This document shows, piece by piece, positions 25,928 to 44,345 of a stretch of 64,000 nt of DNA (position 1 is its first letter; each line of letters begins with the position of its first letter). The DNA is from an uncultured Rickettsiales bacterium. Lineage in GTDB: Bacteria > Pseudomonadota > Alphaproteobacteria > Rickettsiales > UBA1997. A program made the position numbers and the translations under genes. The notes beneath the pieces were generated by a model. That model was not told where the DNA came from, made no database searches, and saw only the letters and a program-made list of their open reading frames with translations. The stretch spans positions 5,359 through 69,358 of the forward strand of contig CALXVQ010000001.1 in assembly GCA_944392135.1 (NCBI GenBank), read 5' to 3'.

Positions 25928-26002
25928 GCGGGTATAGCTCAGTGGTAGAGCACAACCTTGCCAAGGTTGGGGTCGCGAGTTCAAGCCTCGTTGCCCGCTC
26001 CA
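25928..26002 (+). tRNA. tRNA-Gly (anticodon GCC)
   Basis: Hand-folded cloverleaf. Acceptor GCGGGTA/TGCCCGC, D arm GCTC-AGTGGTA-GAGC, anticodon arm CAACC-TTGCCAA-GGTTG, T arm GCGAG-TTCAAGC-CTCGT, encoded CCA. Confidence 0.92.
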
Positions 26003-41726: not shown

Positions 41727-41763
41727 TTGTTGACTTTAATAAAACATAGAATATTATGTCTTT

Positions 41764-41810
41764 TGGAGATGGAGTTCTCCTTTAACCGCAACTAGCTGAT
41801 AACTCCTACT
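41764..41810 (+). promoter_or_regulatory. fluoride riboswitch (crcB RNA motif) candidate
   Basis: UGGAGAUGGAGUUCUCCUUUAACCGCAACUAGCUGAUAACUCCUAC matches the remembered consensus GGnGAUGGnnUUCnCC...AACCGC...GCUGAU.A(nnn)CCUAC. The pseudoknot pair is GGAGU / ACUCC. Located 27 nt upstream of the ATG of a cation/H+ antiporter gene. Confidence 0.68.
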
Positions 41811-41836
41811 TTTAAAAACAATATAAGGAGTTTTGT

Positions 41837-43039
41837 ATGCTTTTTCAAATATTTAGTCTTGTATTTTTAGGTTTAATTATAGATTGGCTTTTTAGAAAAA
41901 TTAAATTACCATCACTTACTGGATGGTTGATTTTTGGTATTATAATTAGTCCTAATACTTATAATTTATTTGGTAGTGAAGTTCTTAGTGTTTCACAAGA
42001 ATTTAAAAATTTAGCATTAATTGTTATTTTATTAAGGGCAGGACTTGAAATAGATTTACAATCACTAAAAAAAATTGGCATTAGAGCTATATTAATGTCA
42101 TTTATCCCTTGTGTTATTGAAATGGTTTTTGTAGCTTTTTCAGCTAATAAATTGTTGGACTTGACATTACTTGAATCATTTATGTTGGGAAGTATTTTAT
42201 CTGCTGTATCACCTGCAATTATTGTTCCTTCTATGATTGATGCAATCAAAGCAAAAAGAGGTATCAAAAAAGGTATCCCTACATTAGTTTTAGCTGGTTC
42301 AAGTTGTGATGATGCTGTGGCTATGGTATTTTGTGCTTCGTTTGTTTCAATGTATATTGGTAGTAATGTAAGTTTAGTTCAAAATTTAGTTGATATTCCA
42401 ATTTCAATTATTGTTGGCATTATAGTTGGTATAGCAATAGCTATAATATTAAATAAAGTGTTTGATAAATTTAACCCACGAGCTACAAAAAGGATTTTAA
42501 TTTTATTATTTATAGCAACGGCACTTTTAAAAATTGAAGAGATTTTGACTATAATTCCATTTTCTGCAATAATTACAATTATGACAATAGGTGTAGTTAT
42601 TTTAAGTAAAAATGAAGTTTATGCCAATGAATTATCTTTAAGATATGGAAAATTATGGATATTTTTACAAATACTATTATTTACATTAGTTGGTATGCAA
42701 ATTGATATAAAAATAGTTTTATCAACTGGTTTGTTAGGGTTTTTAATTATTTTTATTGGACTTTTAGGAAGAAGCATTGGTGTAATTTTATGTTTATTAA
42801 AAAGCGACTTAAATTTCAAAGAAAGATTATTTGTAGTTATTGCATATATTCCAAAAGCAACAGTTCAAGCTGCCATCGGCAGTATGCCACTCAATGCAAT
42901 GCTTACAAACAACTTGCCATCTTTGCCAGGACAAATAATTTTATCAATTGCTGTTTTATCAATTTTAATCACCGCTCCCCTTGGTTCATTTTTAATACAT
43001 TATAGTAGAGATAGATTATTGACAAGGGATATTAAGTAA
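41837..43039 (+). CDS. cation/H+ exchanger (Na_H_Exchanger, CPA family) membrane protein
   Basis: 400 aa, about 11-12 TM helices. LPSLTGWLIFGIIISP...LALIVILLRAGLEIDL...FMLGSILSAVSPAIIV is typical of CPA1/CPA2 antiporters. Confidence 0.78.
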   Translation: MLFQIFSLVFLGLIIDWLFRKIKLPSLTGWLIFGIIISPNTYNLFGSEVLSVSQEFKNLALIVILLRAGLEIDLQSLKKIGIRAILMSFIPCVIEMVFVAFSANKLLDLTLLESFMLGSILSAVSPAIIVPSMIDAIKAKRGIKKGIPTLVLAGSSCDDAVAMVFCASFVSMYIGSNVSLVQNLVDIPISIIVGIIVGIAIAIILNKVFDKFNPRATKRILILLFIATALLKIEEILTIIPFSAIITIMTIGVVILSKNEVYANELSLRYGKLWIFLQILLFTLVGMQIDIKIVLSTGLLGFLIIFIGLLGRSIGVILCLLKSDLNFKERLFVVIAYIPKATVQAAIGSMPLNAMLTNNLPSLPGQIILSIAVLSILITAPLGSFLIHYSRDRLLTRDIK

Positions 43040-43244: not shown

Positions 43245-44345
43245 ATGAAAGCATTTTTGCCAGAAAAATTACCAATTAAAAATCTTGATTTTGGAAAATT
43301 AATAAATCTTGTTGGTGAAGCTAATAGGATGCTATCATTATATAATGGAACATTAAGGGTAATGATTAACCCACATATACTTTTAGCACCATTAAAAACA
43401 AAAGAAGCTATTTTATCTTCAAGAATTGAAGGTACACAAATATCTTTGACAGAACTAATGCAATATGAAGCTGGTGAAAAATATGATGATAAAAAAAATG
43501 ATGAAGCATTAGAAGTTTTAAATTATAAAAATGCTATGATGGAAGCAGAAGAAATGTTTAGTAATCTTCCTAATATACATTTGAATATGATAAGAAAATT
43601 GCATTCAACTTTGTTAAATAATGTTAGAGGAAATAATAAAGCAAGAGGAGAATTTAGAAAAATACAGGTATATATTGCCAATCCAGGTGATTCTATTGAA
43701 AAAGCTAAATTTATACCACCGGAAGCACAAAATGTTTTACCAGCACTTGATAATTGGGAAAAATATATAAATAATAATGAACAAGAACCGCTAATTCAAT
43801 GTTCTATAATGCATGCACAGTTTGAAATTATACATCCTTTTCTTGATGGAAACGGGCGATTAGGAAGAATGCTAATCCCTTTATTTTTATATCAAAAAAA
43901 TTGTATATCAAAACCTGTATTTTATTTAAGTGAATATTTTGAAAATAACAGAGAAGAATATTATTCAAAATTAAATAATATTACCACAAAAAATGATTGG
44001 AATGAATGGGTTGAATTTTTTCTAAAAGCAATAATAGAACAATCTAAAAAAAATATGAAGAAAGCAGAGGAAATTTTAAAATTATATGAGAATAAAAAAC
44101 AAGATTTTATAAATGCTACACATTCAGAATTTGCATTAAATATTTTAGACAATTTATTTAAAAAACCAATTATTTCAGGTAATGAATTACAAAAATTATC
44201 AGGTATAGCATCTGTAAGAACTGCAAATAGTATATTTAAAAAATTAATTAATAAAAATTTAATGCAAATTAATACTATTGGAAAAGGTACAAAATCAACA
44301 GTATATGCTTTTAATGATTTAATATCTTTAAGTGAAAGTAATTAA
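43245..44345 (+). CDS. Fic/DOC family protein (AMPylase-type), with N-terminal inhibitory-helix-like motif and C-terminal wHTH-like region
   Basis: Catalytic motif HPFLDGNGRLGRML (HxFx[D/E]GNGRxxR). Upstream SSRIEGT resembles the (S/T)xxxE(G/N) alpha-inh motif. Confidence 0.88.
   Translation: MKAFLPEKLPIKNLDFGKLINLVGEANRMLSLYNGTLRVMINPHILLAPLKTKEAILSSRIEGTQISLTELMQYEAGEKYDDKKNDEALEVLNYKNAMMEAEEMFSNLPNIHLNMIRKLHSTLLNNVRGNNKARGEFRKIQVYIANPGDSIEKAKFIPPEAQNVLPALDNWEKYINNNEQEPLIQCSIMHAQFEIIHPFLDGNGRLGRMLIPLFLYQKNCISKPVFYLSEYFENNREEYYSKLNNITTKNDWNEWVEFFLKAIIEQSKKNMKKAEEILKLYENKKQDFINATHSEFALNILDNLFKKPIISGNELQKLSGIASVRTANSIFKKLINKNLMQINTIGKGTKSTVYAFNDLISLSESN

Follow-up and report, generated by a model that had tools for sequence, protein, structure and literature searches.

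Does the short leader in front of a cation/proton antiporter gene in an uncultured Rickettsiales bacterium sense fluoride and, if it does, how would it control the gene and what would the cell gain from such control? The locus lies in a 64-kb stretch of DNA (hereafter the window, which denotes the whole stretch that we analyzed), where the original prediction had placed a fluoride riboswitch candidate at 41764-41836. Our reading is that a fluoride riboswitch exerts translational ON control over an NHA2/SLC9B-type antiporter with a role in the pH gradient, and we put the probability of this explanation as a whole at roughly 85%.

The aptamer and the gene behind it

The fluoride riboswitch class (crcB motif) was reportedly described by Baker et al. 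in 2012, and the structure of the aptamer by Ren et al., also in 2012. In the window, positions 41756-41815 (+ strand) matched the Rfam Fluoride model, RF01734, over its full length (model positions 1-64 of 64) with 55.7 bits (E 1e-12). As the gathering score of this model is 34 bits, the aptamer stands 22 bits above it, and the predicted candidate comes through the covariance-model comparison at full model length. When we scanned the whole 1.19-Mb assembly (18 contigs), the window's own match was the single RF01734 match obtained (E 4.3e-15); the sole further Rfam match within the window was a tRNA at 25928-25999. Judged by its sequence, the segment 41756-41815 is a genuine fluoride riboswitch aptamer, a match far beyond chance, and it is expected to bind fluoride.

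The conserved elements named in the original prediction are all in place. A P1 hairpin (GGAG 41765-41768 with CUCC 41777-41780, + strand), found both in the structure line of the cmscan alignment and in the MFE fold, carries the loop AUGGAGUU, which contains the 5′ strand of the pseudoknot, GGAGU(U) at 41771-41776 (+), the complement of 41801-41806. Further along the same strand lie the AACCGC block (41784-41789) and the GCUGAU block (41795-41800), both read directly from the sequence. Between these blocks the cmscan alignment places a P3 stem that is present in minimal form (41788-41796, +), with the two pairs G41788-C41796 and C41789-G41795 and the loop AACUA. The 3′ pseudoknot strand, ACUCC (41802-41806, +), follows within AACUCCU (41801-41807), so that the H-type pseudoknot between the P1 loop and the 3′ tail, GGAGU 41771-41775 with ACUCC 41802-41806, is present. 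The segment thus resembles the RF01734 class in its full-length match, its P1, its 5-6-bp H-type pseudoknot, its AACCGC, GCUGAU and ACUCCUAC blocks and its position in a 5′ leader, here upstream of a Na_H_Exchanger gene, which belongs to a class known from the fluoride regulon.

To examine the pseudoknot in related aptamers, we assembled a set of 48 aptamers, all above the gathering score, made up of 44 that lie upstream of antiporter homologues together with L091, L095, L003 and the window's own. The 5-bp pseudoknot was completely paired in all 48, with six strand combinations, including three double compensatory variants (GAAGU/ACUUC, GAGGU/ACCUC and GGAGC/GCUCC). When the 3′ strands were re-dealt among the sequences in 1000 shuffles, at most 40 of the 48 were paired. 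Covariation therefore backs the pairing of GGAGU with ACUCC that had been proposed from the single sequence.

The gene that follows, at 41837-43039 (+), encodes a 400-aa protein that matches PF00999 (Na_H_Exchanger) with 150.9 bits; NCBIfam matches (K+/H+ antiporter, CPA2) fell far under their cut-offs. Its best solved relatives are the mammalian NHA2/SLC9B2 proteins 7b4l (bison) and 7p1i (human), with an E-value of 3e-39, and archaeal NhaP matched the window antiporter with an E-value of just 5e-7. In the HMMER alignment to 7b4l, D158-D159 corresponds to the DD motif of NHA2 (D277-D278), E95 and R312 to the NHA2-specific Glu-Arg salt bridge (E214-R431) that replaces the lysine of NapA/NhaA, and T342 to NHA2 T461, which occupies the position of NapA E333. 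The motif PKATVQAAIG is conserved between the two proteins as well. The roles of these residues in NHA2 have been reported, and NHA2 is electroneutral despite its DD motif (PMC8850199). Across 32 aligned homologues, D158, E95, R312 and T342 do not vary, and D159 is kept in at least 90%. Given this conservation of the acidic DD cation site, we consider it unlikely that the antiporter transports fluoride directly. We also set aside K340 as a candidate for the NapA-type lysine, as the NHA2 alignment puts the equivalent position at R312. Unlike NHA2, the 400-aa window protein lacks the long N-terminus and starts at about NHA2 residue 114 (the alignment begins at about residue 114-141), and the N-terminal helix TM −1, a feature of the 14-TM NHA2, is probably absent. 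By these sequence hallmarks, the ORF at 41837-43039 is a prokaryotic NHA2-type exchanger. Directly downstream, 43245-44345 (+) encodes a Fic/DOC-family protein (Fic_N and Fic), for which the NCBIfam model of adenylyltransferase Fic gave 173 bits, below its cut-off.

Exporters, the antiporter clade and its physiological role

Na+/H+ antiporters are the next commonest class of genes associated with fluoride riboswitches after the exporters, an association attributed to pH homeostasis (PMC11139923). The link between antiporter and riboswitch, which the original prediction had put forward, is thus documented; both the riboswitch class and the association are already known, and the window is one more instance of them. 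Our literature search found no paper testing such a riboswitch-linked antiporter. We collected 80 loci with antiporter homologues of 42-53% identity, which are distributed over Planctomycetota, Kiritimatiellia, Spirochaetota, Desulfobacterota, Nitrospirota, Clostridia, Bacteroidota and Proteobacteria. At 44 of the 80, RF01734 scored above its gathering score directly upstream of the antiporter and on the coding strand, and a few of the other loci were too short to judge. The antiporter riboswitch was the sole fluoride riboswitch found in 34 of these 44 genomes. At none of the 80 loci did an HMM made from the CrcB proteins of four relatives detect a CrcB-like ORF in the flanking 1.5 kb, and clustering of the ORFs in these flanks revealed no recurrent neighbor beyond antisense artefacts. 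With neither a CrcB-like nor a recurrent neighbor in its flanks, the antiporter is usually monocistronic. In one Nitrospirae MAG (G053:C18, L131), two riboswitches of 53.0 bits each lie 1.6 kb apart on the − strand (67026-67093 and 68654-68721), the first upstream of the second and the second controlling the antiporter; between them, the only ORF of at least 80 aa seen on that strand has 82 aa.

The host genome gives this association a particular setting. The original prediction had noted that no crcB or CLC-F gene lies in the window, and this holds for the entire genome (1.19 Mb, estimated 94.8% complete), in which we found neither CrcB (PF02537) nor CLC (PF00654). At this completeness, absence from one genome is no proof; absence throughout the genus (CrcB 0/9, CLC 0/9 genomes) is stronger. 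Since 24 of 32 genomes from sister genera, within the same family and order, do carry CrcB, we conclude that the genus lost crcB. In this exporter-less genus, with its strongly reduced genomes (1.1-1.8 Mb), the antiporter seems to be the sole function under fluoride control. Fluoride riboswitches occur in three of its nine species: G000, which is the genome of the window, G007 and G004. The first two carry the riboswitch before the antiporter, with proteins that are 98% identical and an identical leader from aptamer to ATG, and both have the cassette after ruvB, G007 with an extra cysteine-synthase-like gene between ruvB and the riboswitch. In G004, the riboswitch stands before enolase, not before the antiporter. 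At that locus (L003, G004:C24:13099-16162), the riboswitch occupies 1501-1564 (−; 52.8 bits) and the enolase gene 91-1392 (−), with a tRNA gene just upstream on the other strand.

The antiporter itself was present in 2 of 41 relatives and in none of the other 39. Its next relative, at 72% identity, is on a human-gut contig of another organism, and further relatives (about 47-56%) are genes labelled Sedimentisphaeraceae, Kiritimatiellia, Lentisphaeria, Clostridia, Spirochaetales and other phyla. This patchy distribution, with relatives in other phyla, suggests that the antiporter was acquired horizontally. The base composition is host-like (27.3% GC in the antiporter vs 26.1% in the window), without sign of recent transfer.

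CrcB was found in 4 of the 80 antiporter genomes, 2 of the 44 that have the riboswitch unit and 2 of the 36 without a detected riboswitch. Some CLC is present in 32 of the 44 riboswitch-antiporter genomes. In CLC-F proteins, the helix-D serine is replaced by Asn or Met, and helix F is marked by Thr or Val close to the external glutamate (PMC4113899). We called CLC-F by simple motifs taken from these hallmarks and by a short protein length (440-462 aa), which makes for a rough classification. By this measure, CLC-F-like genes are confined to four Sphaerochaeta genomes among the 44, where they carry the motif GKEGVGVQ and are separated from the antiporter by about 6 kb. Most of the remaining CLCs have about 530-780 aa, with GHGVPE, GHGTDA or GSGIP in helix D; two are shorter (411 and 473 aa), and none of them adjoins a riboswitch. 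Among the CLC homologues of the antiporter-bearing genomes at L096-L125 and L132-L151, most have about 600 aa and His for the chloride-coordinating serine (GHGVPE/GHGTDA), and a few, such as L149, are without the external glutamate altogether. By a rough count, drawn mostly from MAGs, CrcB and CLCs with CLC-F hallmarks are thus both missing from 38 of the 44 genomes, among them isolates such as Geosporobacter subterraneus DSM 17957 and a strain of Pleomorphochaeta. We had taken the anticorrelation between CrcB and the antiporter (CrcB in 4/80 vs 24/32 sister-genus genomes) as evidence of functional replacement. As a control, we scored CrcB in relatives of the Pleomorphochaeta genome and found it in just 5-7 of 41. 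CrcB is rare throughout that lineage, so the anticorrelation is phylogenetically confounded, and we now regard it as suggestive.

The benefit of the antiporter to the cell would most likely lie in cation/H+ exchange that adjusts the cytoplasmic pH or the pH gradient in fluoride stress. A rival explanation, to which we give serious weight but somewhat less than even odds, is that the antiporter is an accessory pH-homeostasis device for a true exporter and recycles H+ that enters via CLC-F or via a cycle of HF entry and F− exit; it would be of little value alone and, in the present genome, a leftover of horizontal transfer. Such an arrangement is known from Clostridioides difficile CD0656-CD0657, where one fluoride riboswitch governs a CLC and an NhaP-type antiporter (Na+/H+ or K+/H+ by annotation) in a single operon (PMC11477304). 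The review literature, with its appeal to pH homeostasis (PMC11139923), and the four Sphaerochaeta genomes with their nearby CLC-F-like gene point in the same direction. The likeness to C. difficile is in the fluoride riboswitch over an antiporter; the C. difficile antiporter follows a CLC exporter gene, whereas the window antiporter stands alone in a genome and a genus without CLC or CrcB. Points against an accessory function are the 38 of 44 unit-bearing genomes without CrcB or hallmark CLC-F, the lack of any CrcB-like ORF within 1.5 kb at the 80 loci, and the intact unit in two species of so strongly reduced a genus.

A bolder proposal, which we think unlikely, is that the riboswitch-linked NHA2-type clade represents a third route of fluoride resistance, independent of exporters, via cation/H+ exchange and the exit of HF. 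Induced exchange would import protons and so make the transmembrane pH gradient smaller, and fluoride would leave as membrane-permeant HF, the net result being efflux of cation and fluoride. Such a route would be especially effective if an outward K+ gradient drove the exchange. NHA2 prefers Na+ and Li+, with which the thermodynamics are less favorable. The counts behind the proposal are those given above, namely a sole riboswitch in 34/44 genomes, no recognized exporter in 38/44, and the cassette in two species of a crcB-less genus.

Whichever role applies, this reduced, AT-rich genome, from a genus without Fluc/CrcB and CLC and with one fluoride sensor wired to a single gene, offers a clean natural case for the role of Na+/H+ antiporters in fluoride defense. 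The literature that we found (PMC11139923) explains the antiporter association only through general pH homeostasis. The clade also provides a defined protein family for testing, with riboswitch control at 44/80 loci, CrcB in 4/80 genomes and an NHA2-like ion site.

The expression platform

Fluoride riboswitches are known to induce either transcription or translation (PMC11477304). A promoter-like site, TTGACT-16 nt-TATTAT (41730-41757, +), agrees with the consensus at 10 of 12 positions and would start transcripts at about 41763-41765, just before P1. In the window's AT-rich DNA (26% GC), promoter-like sites are no more numerous than in shuffled sequence, so this site is weak evidence; G007 has a different one, TTGATT-16-TAAAAT, at the equivalent place. 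The Shine-Dalgarno (SD) region AAGGAGUU (41825-41832, +; including AGGAGUU 41826-41832) lies 6 nt before the ATG start codon (41837, +). The switching strand AACUCCU (41801-41807, +) would act as the 3′ strand of the pseudoknot in the ligand-bound state or as an anti-SD strand in the ligand-free state.

The original prediction envisaged two copies of GGAGUU competing for one AACUCC. Both copies are present in the sequence, and folding reproduced their competition. In the MFE fold, ACUCCU is paired with AGGAGU of the SD, and in the unconstrained ensemble the probability that the SD is unpaired is 0-0.12 (that is, more than 88% paired). When we blocked the pseudoknot strands, as a crude mimic of the bound fold, the SD core became about 0.7 unpaired (about 72%), at a cost of 7.9 kcal/mol. 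The two duplexes, GGAGUU/AACUCC at −6.3 kcal/mol and AACUCCU/AGGAGUU at −7.9 kcal/mol, are nearly isoenergetic, which is the balance required of a switch that is tipped by its ligand. A consensus terminator scan from the aptamer to the ATG returned no terminator-like site. The isolated SD hairpin, with 7 bp around a loop of 18 nt, reaches −5.9 kcal/mol and is followed by UUUUGUAU, which would make it a poor terminator. In its predicted pairings, the leader thus has the design of an SD-sequestering platform: the partner of the SD is a strand of the aptamer with another use in the bound state, and no terminator accompanies it.

In the proposed mechanism, AACUCCU at 41801-41807 would pair with AGGAGUU at 41826-41832 in the absence of fluoride, and translation initiation would be blocked. 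Binding of Mg2+-fluoride would lock the AACUCCU strand in the pseudoknot with GGAGUU 41771-41776, the SD would become accessible, and the antiporter would be translated.

How much of this pairing is peculiar to the locus? Any strong SD (AGGAG) automatically complements the conserved ACUCCU of fluoride aptamers. As the pairing of the SD with ACUCCU is in part built into the class, complementarity by itself is weak evidence. What sets this site apart is limited to its two additional pairs, a spacing of 18 nt and a leader free of terminators. The leaders of G000 and G007 are 100% identical and so show no covariation at that depth. More distant homologues are more informative. The gene of the 72% identical protein (P0005), which lies next to AraC and cupin genes on the human-gut metagenome contigs L091-L094, has a riboswitch of 53.6 bits and a leader with an 11-bp SD-masking helix, CUCC-(U)-ACUAAUU / AAUUAGU-GGAG, after which there is no U tract. 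The pairs that extend this helix are unlike those of the window. In the Sphaerochaeta homologues L011, L032, L042, L036 and L049, an SD stands opposite ACUCCU, 20-40 nt after it. The predicted RBS-sequestering design therefore recurs in the 72% homologue and in several Sphaerochaeta homologues. In Clostridial and Desulfobacterota homologues, the equivalent strand takes part in classical terminators.

Because the SD has an alternative pairing, no terminator is apparent and the 72% homologue keeps an SD-masking helix with different extra pairs, we favor a translational ON switch as the probable mode of control, with the ON logic following from the predicted pairings. The competing explanation is that the switch is mainly transcriptional, in that the AACUCCU/AGGAGUU hairpin and UUUUGUAU form an intrinsic terminator that fluoride prevents, the masking of the SD being incidental or secondary. 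This is how the Bacillus cereus crcB riboswitch is built, with which the window shares the aptamer architecture and a 3′ pseudoknot strand that doubles in an alternative helix (PMC11077080, PMC11754884). Many homologous loci (L031, L065, L075, L076, L034 and L083) use exactly the switching strand in a terminator stem that is followed by a U run, at L039 the 3′ arm of a hairpin serves as the SD and also opens a U tract, and the window helix, too, is followed by four U residues. Nevertheless, we judge a mainly transcriptional switch improbable here. Unlike that of B. cereus, where the alternative helix is the intrinsic terminator, the window helix sequesters the SD and makes no convincing terminator: the scan was empty, the hairpin is short, wide-looped and weak, its U tract is broken after 4 nt, and the 72% homologue masks its SD without any U tract. 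A weak or minor component of termination alongside translational control is possible.

Aptamer integrity and other members of the fluoride regulon

The original prediction regarded the short P3 as its main weakness. P3 does have 2 bp, but we see no real weakness in this because other strong matches have an equally minimal P3: a stem of 2 bp also occurs in L065 (CCGC-GUAAU-GCUGAU, 59.7 bits), L091 (53.6 bits) and L003 (CCGC-UUUUA-GCUGAU, 52.8 bits). The shortest aptamers of the 48-member set measure 59-60 nt, and the window's is among those of such length. Apart from the 2-bp P3 with its 5-nt loop, the window differs from the RF01734 consensus in reading GAUAACUCC for GAUGACUCC, with A for G before ACUCC; both traits recur in other members, the GAUAACUCC form being common to the Sphaerochaeta-type and L091 aptamers. 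That the aptamer is a decaying relic which has lost fluoride binding, leaving the antiporter constitutive, is very improbable: the two of four consensus P3 pairs that are kept and the GAUAACUCC variant might hint at decay, but the score is 22 bits over the gathering score, a minimal P3 occurs in independent high-scoring lineages (L065, L091, L003), GAUAACUCC is found in the Sphaerochaeta-type and L091 aptamers, the remaining conserved consensus positions all match, and two species with differing upstream flanks share an unchanged stretch from aptamer to ATG. The sequence bears no sign of aptamer decay. The riboswitch of the window thus adds to a known class one instance with a compact, putatively translational platform and a minimal P3.

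A different gene recurred next to fluoride riboswitches in the genomes that we compared. Directly downstream of a fluoride riboswitch, six riboswitch-antiporter genomes encode a dynamin-family GTPase (PF00350, 117 and 91 bits), at L126 (G082:C64:12800-15900), L128, L129, L076 (1707-2840), L069 (652-1454) and L056 (1-1024). The dynamin-like gene stands behind a second riboswitch in four of the six genomes, and at L069 the single riboswitch precedes it and the antiporter comes after it. The dynamin-family GTPase may belong to the fluoride regulon as a member that has so far been under-described. Geosporobacter subterraneus has, in this order, the riboswitch, the dynamin-like gene, a 129-aa ORF and enolase, whereas the next gene after the dynamin-like one in G073 is of the inositol-monophosphatase family.
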